Part shown: in pieces, positions 3,256-18,912 of the stretch
How positions within the stretch are numbered: position 1 is the first letter of the stretch
How the letters are laid out: each line of letters begins with the position of its first letter
Source of the DNA: a virus
Strand: one strand, 5' to 3'
IMG/VR virus record: IMGVR_UViG_3300045988_064948
Length of the DNA stretch: 36,193 nucleotides
Made by a program: the position numbers and the translations under genes
The notes under the pieces: generated by a model
The model's database searches: none
Told to the model about the DNA's origin: nothing
The model's input: only the letters and a program-made list of their open reading frames with translations

Positions 3256-3858
3256 ATGGCACTAACAAGAAGAAGCCTAAAAGCAATGGGCATTGAAGAT
3301 GACAAAATCGACGAGATTATATCGGCACACGCCGAAACGGTTGACGCGTTAAAGGAACAGCGCGACAATTACAAGGCGCAGGCTGACGAGCTTGCAAAAG
3401 TCCAACAGAAACTGGATGAAGCAAACGAGACAATCAAGGCTAATGGCTCGGATGCCTGGAAAGTCAAGTATGACGCAATCAAAGAGGAGTATGACAATTA
3501 TAAATCAGACATATCCGCAAAGGAAACCACACGCGCAAAGCAAGCGGCTTATCGCGAAGTGTTAAAGGCGGCAGGAGTTTCCGAGAAGCGGATTGATAGC
3601 ATTGTTAGGGTATCTGATATTGATTCCGTTGAACTTGATGAGTCGGGCAAAATAAAGGAAGCCGACAAGCTTACCGAGAGCATCAAAAACGAGTGGGCGG
3701 ACTTCATCGTTTCCACCAACACAAAAGGCGCGGACACCGCTACGCCTCCGACTACCTCCAAAAAGTCATTTAGCCGAGAGGATATCGACAAGATGACTCC
3801 CGACGAGATAAACAAGAATTGGGAGACAATCAAAAATTCACTTAAAGGAGAAAGCTAA
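3256..3858 (+). CDS. Scaffolding protein
   Basis: 200-aa, highly charged, coiled-coil-like protein immediately upstream of the major capsid gene. AGGAG RBS. Confidence 0.7.
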   Translation: MALTRRSLKAMGIEDDKIDEIISAHAETVDALKEQRDNYKAQADELAKVQQKLDEANETIKANGSDAWKVKYDAIKEEYDNYKSDISAKETTRAKQAAYREVLKAAGVSEKRIDSIVRVSDIDSVELDESGKIKEADKLTESIKNEWADFIVSTNTKGADTATPPTTSKKSFSREDIDKMTPDEINKNWETIKNSLKGES

Positions 3859-6945: not shown

Positions 6946-7214
6946 ATTTAAGAAGTTTTAGGCTGTTTGGTTGGGGCTATGTCAAAGATTTTTGCATAGC
7001 CCTTTATAAAAAGAGAACGGAAGATGAAATATATAGGGTTTATGTGACTGATTGCTTGCAAATGATAAGCGAAAACACCGCAAATCAAGTCGGCGGCAAG
7101 TTTATACAGAAACGCTATTACGATATATTAAATCCTCCGCCCGTTGAGACGAGAACAGCCGAAGAAATCACTCAAGAAATCGCAGAAAACTGCGGAATAG
7201 AGGTGATTAATTGA
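6595..7214 (+). CDS. Tail assembly chaperone, -1 frameshift product (gpGT analogue; slip at 6885-6891)
   Basis: The -1 frame is open from 6846 to the stop at 7212-7214. It encodes ...FRLFGWGYVKDFCIALYKKRTEDEIYRVYVTDCLQMISENTA...[22 protein letters not shown] with no start codon of its own. Confidence 0.7.
6885..6891 (+). promoter_or_regulatory. Heptanucleotide -1 slippery site T_TTT_TTT
   Basis: The zero-frame reading is GAT TTT TTT ACA, giving an X_XXY_YYZ pattern within the G/GT overlap window. Confidence 0.7.
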
Positions 7215-10200
7215 ATTTATTTGAAGTATTTATTAAAATCGGAGCGGACACATCCGAATCCGATAAGGCAATAAAGGACACAGGCGCAAAGACTAAAGAG
7301 CTGGGCGAAAAGGTTAAAAGCGGTTTAAAAACCGTTGCCAAAGTAGCCGCTGCCGCAACAGGCGCAATGGCGGCAGGCGTATCAAAGGTAGTCAAGGACG
7401 CGACAGCCGCTTATGCCGATTATGAGCAGCTCGTCGGCGGCGTTGAGACTCTTTTCAAGAAATCGTCTAACACCATCCTGCAATATGCGGATAACGCATA
7501 TAAAACAGCGGGACTTTCTGCCAATCAGTATATGGAGACCGTGACAAGCTTCTCGGCTTCGCTCTTGCAGTCCTTGGGCGGCGACACCGTGAAAGCATCA
7601 AAGTATGCGGATATGGCAATCACGGACATGGCGGATAACTACAACAAGCTCGGCACGGATATGTCCTTAGTCCAGTATGCCTATCAAGGCTTCGCAAAGC
7701 AGAACTTTACGATTAAATTTATCTATAGTCCGGCGGCGTGAGTAATCCGCCGTTGAGTGTGAGTGAACCCTACCAGGGGTGTGGGAGAAATCCTGCTAAC
7801 GGGAAAAATCTGTGGGCAAAAGCCTATGACAATCCCGTGCCAAGTCCTAAAATATAAATAATTTCACTTGCATAATAGGTGAAATTGTGTTATAATATTT
7901 TAGGAAAGGTCTAACGGCTATTGGTTCGTTACCAAGTACATCATCTATTGGTACGATGGTGGAAGCGCTCACCAACCTTTAACGGAGGAATTGACTATGG
8001 AAATTTGGAAGCCTATTGAAGAACTGCCCGGTTATTCTGTTAGCGATAAGGGCAGGGTAAGAAAAGACAGCAACGGTCAAATAATGGTGCTCAGTAAAAA
8101 TGGTGGTTATTGCAGAATAACAATTTCAAAGAGCATTCATCGGCTTGTTGCAAAAGCGTTTCTTGACGCTCCTGAGAACAAAGAGCAGTGCTGGGTTGAC
8201 CACATTGACGGAAACCGAGCAAACAACGATGTGAACAACTTGAGGTGGGTAACTCCTTCGGAAAATTGTTTAGCTTTTGGGTATAAAAGCCGCATCGAAA
8301 ACAAGAAGCGCAAAGTCAAGGCAACAAATATTCACGGTCAAACAATCATTTTTGAGTCCAGACAAGCGGCGGCAGAATATTTTGAATGTAGCGATTCCGA
8401 GATTGCTTACGGTCGCTTATATAAAAAAGGAAACAAAAAAGGTTGGTCTTTTGAAAAGGTTGAAGATATAGTCTAATCCCCTAATAAATATCGGGAAACC
8501 GAGGGTATAAAATGGTTAGATAACCTTAAGCTGGGTAGACAAAAAAATATGCCTTTAGCGGCATAACACCATTGCTCAGCATAAACCTCGTGAAAACGGT
8601 GAAACTCTTACCGGGCAATGCCGAAGAAAACACCGTGGTAAATTGACTGCGTAAAATACGCAAAGTCATAACACCTGAACGACTATCGAAACGACGGTGA
8701 AAACCGGAACGGAGTAGAGTACACCCAAGCGGGTGGAAGCGCGAGGGACTATTAAAATAGTCAAGAGATAGTCTGAACTGTATGGAAACATACAGCAGCC
8801 GAAAGGTGGTCACAGAGTAGCGACCTGTGGCGAACATAATGTATGGTGGCACTAAAGAGGAAATGGAGCGCCTCCTGAGAGACGCCGAAAAGCTGACAGG
8901 CAAGAAGTTTGACATTTCCAGCTATGCTGATATCGTCGAAGCAATACACGCCGTGCAAAAAGAAATGGGCATTGCTGGCACGACCGCAAAAGAAGCGGCA
9001 ACGACCATTCAAGGCTCTGTGAGTTCCGCTAAAGCGGCGGGGCATAATCTGCTAGTCGGCATTGCAGACGACAATCAGGACTTCGGCAAACTGGTCGATA
9101 ACTTTGTCGACTCCGTTGTAATTGCGGCTGGCAATATCCTGCCCCGCGTGGAGCAGTCCTTGACAGGTATCGGAAAGCTCGTCGATAAGCTTGCGCCCGT
9201 GCTTATTGCAAAGCTCCCCGATGTGGTCAACAAAGTTCTCCCTGGACTGCTTGACGCAACAGCAAATCTTTTAAACGGTGTTTTGGATGTACTTCCGACG
9301 CTGATAGACGGAATGGTTCCGCCGCTGTTGTCTGCGTTGTCCGATGTCGCGGCAAAACTGCTGGAAACTGTGCCAAAGTTCTGGGACACAACATTTAAAG
9401 CGATTTTGGCATTTATCACAAGCGACAGTCTGCCAAAACTGATAGAATCGGCAATCAATGCGGTGACTCAGACCGTTATTGCTATTGCGAACACTCTGTC
9501 AGACCCCGCAAGCCTTAACGCAATAATAGAGTCTGCACTCGACTTAGTGCTTGCGCTTGTGCATGGGTTAGTGGACGCTATCCCTCAGCTAATCGCCGCA
9601 GTCCCTCAGCTCGTCGGAGCTATCACGGCAACGATAATTACAGAGCTGCCTAACATCATGGCGGCAGCCGTTGAAATAATGGTAGCATTAATTCACGGAC
9701 TTATGGAAGCGTTGCCCGAACTGATGGCGTATGTGCCTAATGTTATTATAGCGATTACAAATGGACTGCTTAACAATCTTGGTACACTGATAAGCGGCGG
9801 CGTTCGCCTCCTGCTGGCTGTTGCACAAGGTATGATTCAGGCGATTCCTGATATGGTTGCAATGATACCACGAATTATCGCGTCGATAGTTGATGCTTTC
9901 CACTCTTACAACTGGAGCAGCATCGGCAAAAACATCGTGGCAGGAATGAAACAGGGTGTTGCGAATGCTTGGAAGAATTTTAGAGAATGGTTTAAAAACC
10001 TCTTTGGAGACCTCACAAACATTGCTAAAAAGATACTCGGCATTGCCTCGCCGTCAAAGGTGTTTAAAAAAATCGGTCAGTTTACGACCGAGGGACTGGC
10101 AATCGGTATCGAGCAGGGCGGCAAAGACGCATTTTCCGCAATCAAAGATGTCTCGCAGGGTGTTATTGACAATTACGGCGCGTCCGTATCGGCGGGATTT

Positions 10201-10359
10201 GGCGTTTCAGTCGGAACTTCTGCGTCAAAGGGAATTTCTCTAACGCTTAATATTGACACATTTAATAATTACACGCAGGAAGATATAAAGAGCCTTGCGG
10301 AAAGGCTGTCAGAAATGCTTGCAAATGCAGCAGAGAGAAAGGCGGGTGCTTATGCTTAA
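7211..10359 (+). CDS. Tape measure protein, split gene: exons 7211..7713, 8515..8536 and 8842..10359 (680 aa after splicing)
   Basis: TTG start follows a GAGGTG RBS. Joining the three exons gives ...[47 protein letters not shown]..., the conserved tape-measure motif. Exon lengths 503+22+1518 = 2043 nt are in frame. Confidence 0.85.
7868..7896 (+). promoter_or_regulatory. Promoter inside intron 1 for the homing endonuclease ORF
   Basis: TTGCAT, 17-nt spacer, TGtTATAAT (7891-7896). An 8-bp inverted repeat AATTTCAC/GTGAAATT overlaps it. Confidence 0.45.
7997..8476 (+). CDS. Intron-encoded homing endonuclease (NUMOD4 + HNH_3 with a C-terminal DNA-binding module)
   Basis: GGAGG lies 8 nt upstream of the ATG at 7997. 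Motifs are [21 protein letters not shown] (NUMOD4-like) and HRLVAKAFL...[24 protein letters not shown] (HNH_3-like). Confidence 0.85.
8537..8841 (+). ncRNA. Group I intron 2 (305 nt, ORF-less)
   Basis: The 5' exon ends ...CTGGGT and the intron ends ...GAACATAATG. It has a P8-like hairpin GACTAT-TAAA-ATAGTC (8747-8762), AAGAGATAGTCTGAAC (8763-8778) and a P9-like hairpin CTGTATG-GAAA-CATACAG (8778-8795). From memory, the layout resembles T4 td-type introns. Confidence 0.75.
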
Positions 10360-11050
10360 CGATTTTTTTACTTGGAATGGCAAGAAGTCCTCAGATTTTG
10401 GCATAGTCATCAAGCACAAAGAAATATATAAAGCACCCGTCCGCGACGTTGATTTTGTCGAAGTGCCCGGAAGAGACGGAGAAGTGATTTTGGACAACGG
10501 ACGCTATAGGAATGTTGATGTTACTTATCAAGTCCGTGTCAAAAATGTCAAGTCGAAGCTGTTAGAAATAGCTAACTGGCTTTCGGCTGTTGGATATCAA
10601 AAACTGATTGACAGCGACGATTCTACGCACTACAGAATGGCAGCAAGGACTGGCTCTGTTGACTGGGATTATCTCGGAAAAGGCGAGTGGGCTGATTTAG
10701 AAATAACATTTAACTGTAAGCCTTACCGAAACCTTACCACGGGCGCAACAACTTTGACGGCGGCAGGAAGTATCACAAACCCGACGCAGTACACCGCCCT
10801 GCCGTATTTTAAAATTCACGGGAGCGGTGATATCACGCTAAAGGTAAATAACAAATCTTTTGCCTTTACATCGATATCAAGTTACATCGAATGTGATAGC
10901 AGCTTGCAGGCGGTATTTACTGGCACAAGCAGCAAGGCAAACCGCGCGAACTTTGACGATTTTCCGACTTTTAAAGCAGGCGCAAACTCTATAAGCTGGA
11001 CTGGAACGGTGACTAAGGTGGAAGTCGTCCCGCACTGGCGCGAACTATAA
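10352..11050 (+). CDS. Distal tail protein (Dit, Sipho_tail-like)
   Basis: The ATG at 10352 overlaps the tape measure stop. N-terminus [21 protein letters not shown]...VEVPGRDGEV is typical of Dit proteins. Confidence 0.75.
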   Translation: MLNDFFTWNGKKSSDFGIVIKHKEIYKAPVRDVDFVEVPGRDGEVILDNGRYRNVDVTYQVRVKNVKSKLLEIANWLSAVGYQKLIDSDDSTHYRMAARTGSVDWDYLGKGEWADLEITFNCKPYRNLTTGATTLTAAGSITNPTQYTALPYFKIHGSGDITLKVNNKSFAFTSISSYIECDSSLQAVFTGTSSKANRANFDDFPTFKAGANSISWTGTVTKVEVVPHWREL

Positions 11051-17643: not shown

Positions 17644-17959
17644 TTTCAATCATTCCTTTCAGCTCTTCAAATTCTTTCCTCGTCACATAGTCGGGCGAAT
17701 CGGGCTGTGCGTCATCGCACGGAACAAATTTAAACTTGCGAATTGATGCAAATCCCGCGCCGTCCGTGGTCTTGATATAGAAAAAATCTTCGTTTGCATC
17801 AAACAAAGCGACGGAGCTATTCGCTCCCATCTGATACGCTTGTGCTCCCTGGATTCCGTTGACCCTGACGATACCACGCTCTAAATTCTGCACGCAGTTT
17901 TGATAATTCTGCGTGTAGTTTTGATAGTTAGGATAATTCGGATAATATGGGTTAAACAT
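17612..17959 (-). CDS. Protein with an N-terminal Tyr/Asn/Pro/Gln-rich low-complexity segment, function unknown
   Basis: AAAGGAGG RBS. MFNPYYPNYPNYQNYTQNYQN is followed by a globular part, VNGIQGAQAYQMGANSSVALFDANEDFFYIKTTDGAG. Confidence 0.65.
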   Translation of the reverse strand: MFNPYYPNYPNYQNYTQNYQNCVQNLERGIVRVNGIQGAQAYQMGANSSVALFDANEDFFYIKTTDGAGFASIRKFKFVPCDDAQPDSPDYVTRKEFEELKGMIENGKQHIREAE

Positions 17960-17979
17960 ATAATTCCTCCTTTATCTCT

Positions 17980-18007
17980 ATTATACGCATATCGTGGAAA
18001 AAGTGAA
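17980..18007 (-). promoter_or_regulatory. Candidate promoter of the antisense island
   Basis: On the - strand: TTCACT (18007-18002), 16-nt spacer, TATAAT (17985-17980), just upstream of the AAAGGAGG RBS. Confidence 0.4.
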
Positions 18008-18071
18008 CGAAGCGAACACGAAAAAAGCCCGCAAAAAACGTTAAAAAAGCTAAAAAATTTTAAAAAAACTA

Positions 18072-18100
18072 TTGACAAATACAGTCAAACAGTATATAAT
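18072..18100 (+). promoter_or_regulatory. Early rightward promoter, conserved AAAAAACTATTGACAA...AGTATATAATATA class
   Basis: TTGACA at 18072-18077, 17-nt spacer, TATAAT at 18095-18100, with upstream A-tracts. Divergent from the island promoter. Confidence 0.7.
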
Positions 18101-18151
18101 ATAGTCACAAGGTCAAGGAAGACCAACAAAATAAAGAAAGAGGTAAAAACA

Positions 18152-18391
18152 ATGAAAGACTTTGAAATCTGCTTGAGCAATCGGGACTGCATCTTTGACA
18201 GCGCGACTTTTGACGACGCAAAAGCGGCGGCAGAGTGGGCGACGGGAAGAAGAGAAAACTACGTTATACAAGGCGATAACGGGCTTAATGTAAAATCGTC
18301 AAAAGACAAGCTTTATGTCGAAAACTTTTACGGCTACGAAGAGATATCCGAAGATGAGCTTGTTGAAATGATTAAAAGATACGCAGAGTGA
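18152..18391 (+). CDS. Hypothetical early protein (79 aa)
   Basis: GAGGT RBS. The longer track ORF from 17900 would run through the promoter and is rejected. Confidence 0.6.
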   Translation: MKDFEICLSNRDCIFDSATFDDAKAAAEWATGRRENYVIQGDNGLNVKSSKDKLYVENFYGYEEISEDELVEMIKRYAE

Positions 18392-18468
18392 CGCGCCGAA
18401 AGGCGCGGTAATGCGGACAGACGGACGGTCACAATCCCGACGGTCGCACATAAAAGGAGGAAAAAATA

Positions 18469-18912
18469 ATGTTTATTTGCAAAGACTGTGGAAGCGTTTT
18501 TGAATGCCCCGACTACACGGAAGAGAACGTCGGCGAGTACTGCGGTCAGCCCGCATTTCAGGCGGTTGACATCTGCCCGTATTGCCATTGCGATGAGTTT
18601 GAAGAGGCGAGAAAGTGCGAAATCTGCGGCGAATGGAAGTCGGAAGATGACATGGAGTGCGATGTCTGCTATGACTGCATGAATGAGCACAAGTACGATT
18701 TTGACTATTGTGAGAGTTTGTGCGGAGACGAAACGGAGGCGGTGCAGATTAACGCGCTGTATGCGTCGCTTTTAACACCGCGTCAGATTAACATGATACT
18801 GCGCCGCGAGTTGAAGCAGGCTAACGCGATTCAGCCGCTGGATTGCACAGAGTTCATCGACTCCGACCGCACATGGTTCGCGGACAAAATGATAGAAAAG
18901 GAGGTAAAATAA
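18469..18912 (+). CDS. Multi-zinc-ribbon protein (several CxxC pairs), function unknown
   Basis: AGGAGG RBS. CxxC pairs: CKDC, CPYC, CEIC, CDVCYDC. Confidence 0.6.
   Translation: MFICKDCGSVFECPDYTEENVGEYCGQPAFQAVDICPYCHCDEFEEARKCEICGEWKSEDDMECDVCYDCMNEHKYDFDYCESLCGDETEAVQINALYASLLTPRQINMILRRELKQANAIQPLDCTEFIDSDRTWFADKMIEKEVK

Follow-up and report, generated by a model that had tools for sequence, protein, structure and literature searches.

We analyzed a window of 36,193 nucleotides (nt) of viral DNA (IMG/VR record IMGVR_UViG_3300045988_064948) in which the gene for the phage tape measure protein lies in three pieces on the plus strand. The first open reading frame (ORF) of this gene, 7211..7741, encodes the N-terminal part of the protein and then runs through nine codons of unrelated sequence (IKFIYSPAA) to a stop codon at 7739-7741, while a later ORF, 8827..10359, includes the continuation of the protein from 8842 on. 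Between them lies an island of 22 nt, 8515-8536 (GTTAGATAACCTTAAGCTGGGT), which together with the AT of 7712-7713 codes for MLDNLKLG. The intervening sequences are 801 nt (intron 1, 7714..8514) and 305 nt (intron 2, 8537..8841) long; the first contains an ORF for an HNH homing endonuclease and the second is ORF-less. We consider it very probable that the tape measure gene is interrupted here by two independent group I introns and that the 22-nt mini-exon between them is included on splicing.

The tape measure locus and its conserved block

Exon 1 (7211..7713, 503 nt, with a TTG start and a PHROG assignment) ends in ...ACGAU, the final U (U7713) marking the 5' splice site of intron 1, and exon 3 (8842..10359, 1518 nt) begins at YGGTKEEM. 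Joining 7211-7713, 8515-8536 and 8842-10359 gives a 2043-nt ORF of 680 amino acids (aa). This layout had been proposed in an earlier interpretation made from the letters of the window (hereafter, the sequence-only reading). Its ORF coordinates, the resumption of the second ORF at 8842 and the 22-nt island were all found in the sequence as described, and recomputing the joins 7713/8515 and 8536/8842 (a slash marks a junction or insertion point) returned the same 680-aa product. Both upstream exons end in T (7713 and 8536), both introns end in G (8514 and 8841), and the group I core-like strings that the reading had named are present.

The conceptually spliced protein matches PHROG tape measure families, with a best E-value of 5e-76. 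When its first 359 residues were used as a query, thousands of uninterrupted homologs were returned, of which we inspected the best 120 (~55-67% identical). The block that spans both proposed junctions, KQNFTMLDNLKLGYGGTK, is uninterrupted in 119 of these 120 proteins, with the pattern K[QSA]N[FY]TMLDNL[KA][LI]GYGGT[KQ] contiguous in the same number, and the exact spliced 18-mer is present in 40. Such agreement between the predicted spliced block and the homologs is far more than chance would be expected to give. As the block is intact in 119 of 120 homologs, both insertion points fall within an almost invariant stretch, which the proposed splicing recreates exactly; this bears out the earlier suggestion that the insertions sit in the most conserved part of the protein and that uninterrupted homologs carry the block in one piece. 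A scan of metagenome data for the exact spliced sequence gave zero matches. We rejected an alternative in-frame register for intron 1 (ACGATT/...ATGG/), which gives TILDN, a string in no listed homolog, and leaves the 5' splice site without its conserved U.

Intron 2

Intron 2 is the more readily recognized of the two ribozymes. The Rfam group I model (RF00028) matches it over the full length of the model at 8544-8795 on the plus strand, with 62.1 bits (E-value 1.3e-13; gathering score 50), so that the covariance-model check proposed for this intron was passed. In the model alignment, a long insertion stands where the paired elements P7.1 and P7.2 of subgroup IA (IA1 or IA2) are located. The 5' strand of P7 (GACUAU, 8681..8686) pairs with AUAGUC at 8768-8773, and a P6a hairpin occupies 8645..8667. 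The 5' splice site would be chosen through a P1 of 7 base pairs (bp), in which the guide sequence GCUCAGC (8574..8580) pairs with GCUGGGU of the mini-exon (8530-8536) and U8536 forms a wobble pair with G8574. In a more compact homolog (locus L008, 92.3 bits), the same P1 is aligned by the Rfam model itself. The strand CACCAU (8567..8572) is predicted from the sequence to form a 6-bp P10 with AUGGUG of exon 3 (8843-8848), just downstream of the splice site that terminal G8841 precedes.

The exon and the guide vary together across ~125 loci with an intron at this site (site 2). Where the exon Leu codon is CUC, the guide reads GCCGAG; CUG is accompanied by GCUCAG or GCCCAG, and CUA by GCCUAG. Position -7 of the exon likewise alternates between A and G in step with U or C in the guide, and all seven of the seven P1 pairs are formed in ~113 of the ~125 loci.

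A natural empty site locates the ends of the intron. The sister phage contig L031, whose exons are ~91% identical to those of the window, lacks intron 2 and reads ...AAGCTCGGC/TATGGCGGC at this point; here ...AAAATG/GTTAGATAACTTGAAGCTCGGC TATGGCGGCACT joins the mini-exon directly to exon 3. This empty-site allele, together with the contiguous block in the homologs, fixes both boundaries of intron 2 at the positions that had been predicted. The window-type intron (ORF-less, ~305 nt) also occurs alone, without an upstream intron, in metagenome contig L151. A minus-strand ORF of 129 aa (8526-8915) covers intron 2; it is without support as a gene and is probably spurious.

The closest described relative is the intron between ORF40 and ORF42 of the Lactococcus phage r1t (with ORF41 coding for an HNH protein), also found in phages 28201, 50901 and 62501. 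Its identity is supported by the record annotation, by Rfam and by sequence analysis, and it was reportedly published in the 1990s. It interrupts the same host gene family at the identical site, LDNLKLG/YGGT, with the same P1 logic and a homologous core (GCUCAGUAUAAACCUCGUGAAAACGGUG...), at ~75% nucleotide identity across the alignable parts, and we assign intron 2 to this family. The two differ in that r1t encodes a 186-aa HNH protein in its P6 region where intron 2 has no ORF, and in that intron 2 forms a stronger P10 and contains an additional hairpin within its P1 loop. They differ also in their surroundings, since r1t and 28201 carry only the site-2 intron, with its HNH ORF, whereas the window has a second intron 22 nt upstream. 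The form in the window, which lacks an enzyme of its own, may be a remnant or one not yet invaded.

Intron 1 and its endonuclease gene

For intron 1, the evidence for a ribozyme comes from comparison. We aligned 14 introns at the same position (site 1), with ORFs replaced by a tetraloop and with P7 and P9 added by hand. The structure to be tested comprised 74 pairs in 15 helices; the controls were the same helices with partners slid by 1-3 columns, and 500 shuffles. In the alignment, 99.1% of pair cells hold standard pairs and 39 of the 74 pairs show compensatory changes. The slid controls gave at most 9 such pairs and 35-45% pairing, and none of the 500 shuffles reached the observed covariation score. 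P7 is invariant in the alignment, so that no covariation comes from it.

The fold contains P2, P3, two extra hairpins before J3/4, P4-P6, P7.1, P7.2, P8 and a P9 hairpin. In P3, GUGAGUG (7759..7765) pairs with CGCUCAC (7966-7972), and the central pair occurs as four pair types. The extra hairpins, at 7767-7780 and 7781-7796, lie between P3 and J3/4-P4; the second has covariation support, and the first has a conserved sequence with one-sided changes only. The 5' strand of P7 (GGCUA, 7916..7920) pairs with UAGUC (8469-8473), just before which lies J8/7 (AAGAUA). Both P7.1 (7921-7935) and P7.2 (7939-7961) show compensatory changes and stand between P7 and the 3' strand of P3, as in subgroup IA (IA1/IA2), and we describe the intron as IA-like. 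In P8, AACCUUU (7974..7980) pairs with AAAGGUU (8455-8461), and the ORF occupies the P8 loop. The closest ORF-less relative, L019, is 280 nt long and 93.5% identical to the alignable 5' core of intron 1; at the position of the ORF it has AACCUU-GUAA-AAGGUU, a GUAA-capped P8 hairpin.

At the 5' splice site, GAU/UA (7711-7715) would pair with the guide UAGUC (7726..7730) in a short P1 that includes a U7713-G7728 wobble. The register is indicated by the +1 position, which covaries with its partner (U-A, A-U, G-C), and every site-1 intron listed keeps the U that ends the exon and the G of the guide. The 3' exon would be aligned through a P10 in which UAUCUA (7720..7725) is predicted to pair with UAGAUA of the mini-exon (8517-8522). 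Among the pairings considered and discarded, the permissive Rfam alignment placed the 3' strand of P3 on the Shine-Dalgarno sequence of the ORF, where covariation favours GUGAGUG with CGCUCAC instead; an alternative P3 strand, GGUGUG, just after the first hairpin, leaves a U-U mismatch in the window and covaries less well; and spurious alifold pairs (GUCC with a GGG close to the 3' end, and others within J8/7) were taken out of the tested structure.

The ORF of intron 1 (7997..8476, plus strand, 159 aa) is preceded by a ribosome-binding site (RBS), GGAGGA, at 7984-7989, and its last codons overlap the 3' strand of P8, J8/7 and the 3' strand of P7. The earlier description of it as a homing endonuclease gene can be made more specific. 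The product is of the HNH type, with Pfam matches to NUMOD4 (PF07463, 41.2 bits) and HNH_3 (PF13392, 39.1 bits) and a match to PHROG 59, "HNH endonuclease". Its sole PDB sequence match (E-value 5e-7, residues 4-91) is I-HmuI (1U3E), the HNH nicking endonuclease of the DNA polymerase intron of Bacillus phage SPO1. Both proteins have an N-terminal NUMOD4-like region followed by the HNH motif, and both are encoded within introns of phages of Gram-positive bacteria. The likeness is low outside the N-terminal and HNH region, and the target gene is a different one. ORF-containing site-1 introns have a P6 extension with the arrangement TTGNNN-17 nt-TG-N-TATAAT, and ORF-less versions are without the extension. 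In the window it contains TTGCAT-17 nt-TATAAT (7868..7896, plus strand), with a TG upstream of the -10 box. As the element co-occurs with the ORF, we read it as probably the ORF's own promoter.

Several observations weigh against our reading of the locus. Intron 1 was not among the RF00028 matches at the gathering threshold in the Rfam scan of the window; a permissive scan matched it at full length with only 19.4 bits (E-value 0.03), and L019 was likewise sub-threshold, with 25.8 bits against the gathering score of 50. Its P1 has only 3 exon base pairs, and both extra hairpins, in intron 1 and its relatives, fall outside the Rfam group I consensus. The guide GUCCG fits another insertion site further upstream, site 0 (CGGAU), better than it fits site 1 (ACGAU). 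The promoter-like element was not listed by a consensus promoter scan. Finally, the splicing of both introns, the activity and target of the HNH enzyme, promoter use and co-conversion are matters that we infer.

The 480-nt ORF and some atypical hairpins are penalized by the model, and the hairpins probably account for the low score of intron 1. An ORF-less intron of the same family at site 1 (L016/L009, 283 nt) exceeds the gathering score, with 52.9 bits. The covariance-model check proposed for intron 1 thus gave a divided result, in which the window copy remained sub-threshold but a same-site family member passed and covariation supports the core. With this core, and with the conserved block restored, intron 1 stands as a group I intron at the predicted boundaries. 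One might still suppose that it is a decaying ribozyme, unable to self-splice or dependent on a cofactor, in a defective phage. The sub-threshold score, the very short P1 and the atypical peripheral hairpins would fit such decay, but the 99.1% of intact pair cells include the window's own row, and copies 98-100% identical occur in several diverged phages from independent samples, which is consistent with the intron having spread recently among viable phages. Tail assembly, moreover, requires the tape measure protein. Decay of intron 1 is, on this evidence, very unlikely.

Proposed splicing of the mini-exon

In the mechanism that we propose, the tape measure gene of this ~36-kb phage would be transcribed as a single pre-mRNA containing two independent group I ribozymes, each of which would excise itself by the standard guanosine-initiated two-step transesterification using the P1 and P10 described above. 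The predicted spliced RNA is ...ACGAU/GUUAGAUAACCUUAAGCUGGGU/UAUGGUGG, with a junction 38-mer of TTTACGATGTTAGATAACCTTAAGCTGGGTTATGGTGG, and the predicted protein stretch over the junctions is QNFTMLDNLKLGYGGTK. Inclusion of the mini-exon would restore the invariant MLDNLKLG block. Of its 22 nt, the first 8 belong to the P10 of intron 1 and the last 7 to the P1 of intron 2. Because the guide pairings use non-overlapping ends of the mini-exon, either intron could splice first and base pairing would force no order.

Short exons between group I introns have precedent. In the Staphylococcus phage Twort, introns 2 and 3 of orf142 flank a 23-nt exon and exon skipping was reported (Landthaler and Shub 1999, as described in PMC10136302); a 34-nt exon between two group I introns in the Coxiella 23S rRNA gene, also with skipping, is described there too. 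An internal exon of the phage SIOphi terminase gene is reportedly skipped as well (PMC10136302, PMC11878797). Like the window, with its 22 nt, Twort has such an exon in a phage protein gene, and its introns are described as IA2, which is comparable with the IA-like P7.1/P7.2 architecture here. The host gene is a different one, however, and in the window one of the two introns has an HNH ORF. The Twort introns are also described as highly similar to each other, whereas the cores of introns 1 and 2 are only 54-63% identical.

These precedents raise an alternative for the window, in which 7714-8841 would be removed as one unit, through exon skipping or as a composite ribozyme, with 7713 joined to 8842 and the island a coincidence or by-product. 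Besides the skipping reported for Twort orf142 and SIOphi, the P7 and J8/7 strings, nearly identical between introns 1 and 2, speak for it. The join 7713/8842, however, shifts the frame and yields a truncated product of 179 aa, while MLDNLKLG is present in essentially all homologs, and the guides of the two introns pair separately with the mini-exon. In two-intron loci, the mini-exon variants differ by synonymous changes only. Since skipping is out of frame and the variation is synonymous only, inclusion must be the productive route. The divergence of the two cores, unlike the high similarity reported for the Twort pair, also argues against one-unit removal, which we regard as highly unlikely; skipping may occur as a minor side reaction. 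Read-through from the mini-exon would stop 10 codons into intron 2.

The locus might instead be a split gene, with two polypeptides (176 aa and ~510 aa) and a free-standing HNH gene in a non-splicing spacer. This matches the annotation by gene callers in Javan271, r1t and 28201, where such loci appear as two "minor tail" or "tape measure" coding sequences (CDSs) plus an HNH gene. Against it, both spacers have ribozyme folds, by covariance model and by covariation, precise empty-site alleles exist, and exon-guide covariation is maintained. A split would also break up the invariant block and leave the mini-exon without a start codon or an RBS context. We consider a split gene extremely improbable.

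Distribution in related phages

The same arrangement is found well beyond the window. Contig L032, from another assembly, is 100% identical to it over 7000-10400, and the identical HNH protein is encoded on 10 contigs (L032 and nine further ones) from several different sequencing samples. A prophage in an isolate genome, Streptococcus phage Javan271 (MK448723), has the same architecture: exon 1 ending in ...ACGAU/, an 893-nt intron, a 22-nt mini-exon, a 298-nt ORF-less site-2 intron and exon 3. Its HNH protein is 65% identical to that of the window, its exons have diverged, and the overall nucleotide identity is ~64% over the aligned introns and adjoining exon 3. In its annotation, the first intron appears only as "HNH homing endonuclease # Phage intron", flanked by two CDSs called "minor tail protein", and the second goes unmarked. 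The window is a metagenome-derived sequence, and an assembly artefact or chimera might therefore be suspected; L032 and the nine further contigs, being independent assemblies, and the same layout in Javan271 effectively refute this.

A search for the site-1 pattern gave 35 loci. One of these, L027, was set aside for its other gene context, and the window was counted once with its identical copy L032. Of the remaining 34, 16 also have an intron at site 2 and 18 do not. Introns of the r1t type occupy site 2 on at least 120 IMG/VR contigs, mostly alone. In the two-intron loci, all four combinations of ORF states occur: an ORF in intron 1 only (the window), in intron 2 only (L009), in neither (L008) and in both (L028). 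In L027, the 3'-end pattern of intron 1 with GTTAGATAAC lies at position 3327 on the minus strand, beside a different coding context (MLDNYGMGVNEATIKTRALEMGL...); this may represent an intron within a different family of tape measure genes. Other two-intron tape measure loci (L052, L070 and L141, also L066 and L120) have the window-type intron 2 after a different, apparently unrelated site-1 intron, ORF-less, of ~256 nt and ending in ...AAGAAAUAGUCUGAUUCUACGGGAAACCGUAGAGCAAUCG, so that site 1 has been colonized by more than one intron lineage.

In genome contigs, the pattern of the intron 1 3' end followed by the mini-exon had one match, on a contig of a metagenome-assembled genome. In an annotated phage collection, the region is covered by a single matching place in 363 of 379 matching records, a count that includes a few cases with ORF-less introns, among them IPP23 and MissG1, in which the two pieces were joined.

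The tape measure gene also contains site 0 (GGAU/AAC, 7636..7637), 77 nt upstream of site 1 and empty in the window. In L031, which is without intron 2, a third group I intron of 874 nt (L031 4766-5639) is inserted there. It encodes a 189-aa NUMOD4 and HNH_3 protein with 31% identity to the enzyme of intron 1, and it shares with intron 1 the GUCCG guide, the motif GAACYCUACCAGRGGUGUG and a 47-nt 3' end (95.7% identical). The shared guide fits site 0 better, a hint that transposition from site 0 gave rise to the site-1 intron.

In five sister loci (L028, L030, L033, L034 and L015), the P6a loop of intron 2 is enlarged by a 528-nt cassette at the position corresponding to ~8653/8654 of the window. 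The cassette consists of TTGACA-17 nt-TATAAT, an RBS and a 164-aa ORF that matches PHROG 2081 ("HNH endonuclease") and has zero Pfam matches. The 874-nt site-1 intron of L035 has a simple P8 hairpin and an ORF resembling the 164-aa PHROG-2081 protein of L028 intron 2 (shared ...DDYDKIKGFSEEIF...). This ORF seems to occupy another position within the intron, and this suggests transfer of endonuclease cassettes from one intron to another.

Two observations concern other parts of these phages. The first gene of L028 and L030 (locus 1-746) codes for a Mu F-like minor head protein of 581 aa with a match to the Pfam family Intein_splicing, and in L032 the protein is ~300 aa without an intein; the intein is another mobile element polymorphic in the lineage of the window phage. 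Elsewhere in the window, a Type-P5 twister ribozyme (RF02684) matches at 18382-18440 on the plus strand, with 56.7 bits against a gathering score of 37.6, at the end of the ORF 17900-18391 and just upstream of the ORF 18469-18912.

Proposed mobility of the two introns

Between phages with exons 86-94% identical, intron 1 and its ORF are 98-100% identical; where exon identity is ~68-70%, they still reach 85-92%. Conservation of intron 1 above that of the exons is the expected footprint of horizontal spread. In our model, the HNH enzyme would nick or cut intron-less alleles near site 1, and intron 1 would be copied into them by repair; for such site-specific activity, the higher conservation of the intron is indirect support. 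Intron 2 may spread by co-conversion with intron 1, for which the sites, 22 bp apart, are close enough, or by enzymes acting in trans. The idea that ORF-less introns can home collaboratively or in trans is an established one (PMC3984707).

Both introns are also found singly, and all four ORF states are found in combination across Streptococcus and gut phages, which argues that the two are independent elements and not one unit. Two separately spreading elements would then have come together by chance in a hot spot, where at least three insertion sites lie within 100 nt. The sequence-only reading had asked whether one endonuclease mobilizes both introns; the comparative data point to independent introns, with a separate ORF within intron 2 of sister phages. 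Alternatively, the introns could be a linked working pair. Each time the intron 1 enzyme opened the DNA of a naive allele, 22 bp away, co-conversion would then bring in the ORF-less intron 2 as well ("piggy-back homing"), and the involvement of 15 of the 22 mini-exon bases in guide pairings would impose a splicing order or a cooperative fold. A regulated exon-skipped transcript could even produce the truncated 179-aa N-terminal fragment. We consider such a linkage doubtful, and it is directly testable with the natural series, which has the four ORF states and both single-intron states.

A comparable hot spot has been described in prophages of the Bacillus cereus group, whose group I introns TMP-IVS1, IVS2 and IVS3 occupy three tape measure sites (Tourasse and Kolsto 2008, PMC2504315). 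There too some genes have two introns, and related introns of type IA1 or IA2 are adapted to different sites through P1 and P10. The hosts and phage lineages are others. No short internal exon is mentioned in the sections of PMC2504315 that were consulted, and our literature searches turned up no account of a tape measure gene in which a mini-exon lies between two introns. Every ingredient of the locus has a published precedent, and it is not a new kind of element.

Implications

The value of the locus thus lies in correct annotation and in a natural allelic series and not in a new principle. Tape measure genes of this kind, in many Streptococcus prophages and gut phages, are now called as two or three genes, since the 22-nt exon is invisible to gene callers, and should be joined across both introns and the mini-exon. 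For the biology of these phages, the locus is a natural and widespread case in which two distinct group I ribozymes have a very short exon in common. The public sequences already form the series, from loci with either intron singly to loci with both, with endonuclease ORFs present or absent, and with a third site 77 nt upstream. It would be useful for studying exon definition by P1 and P10, splicing order, exon skipping, and the co-conversion or hitch-hiking of ORF-less introns.

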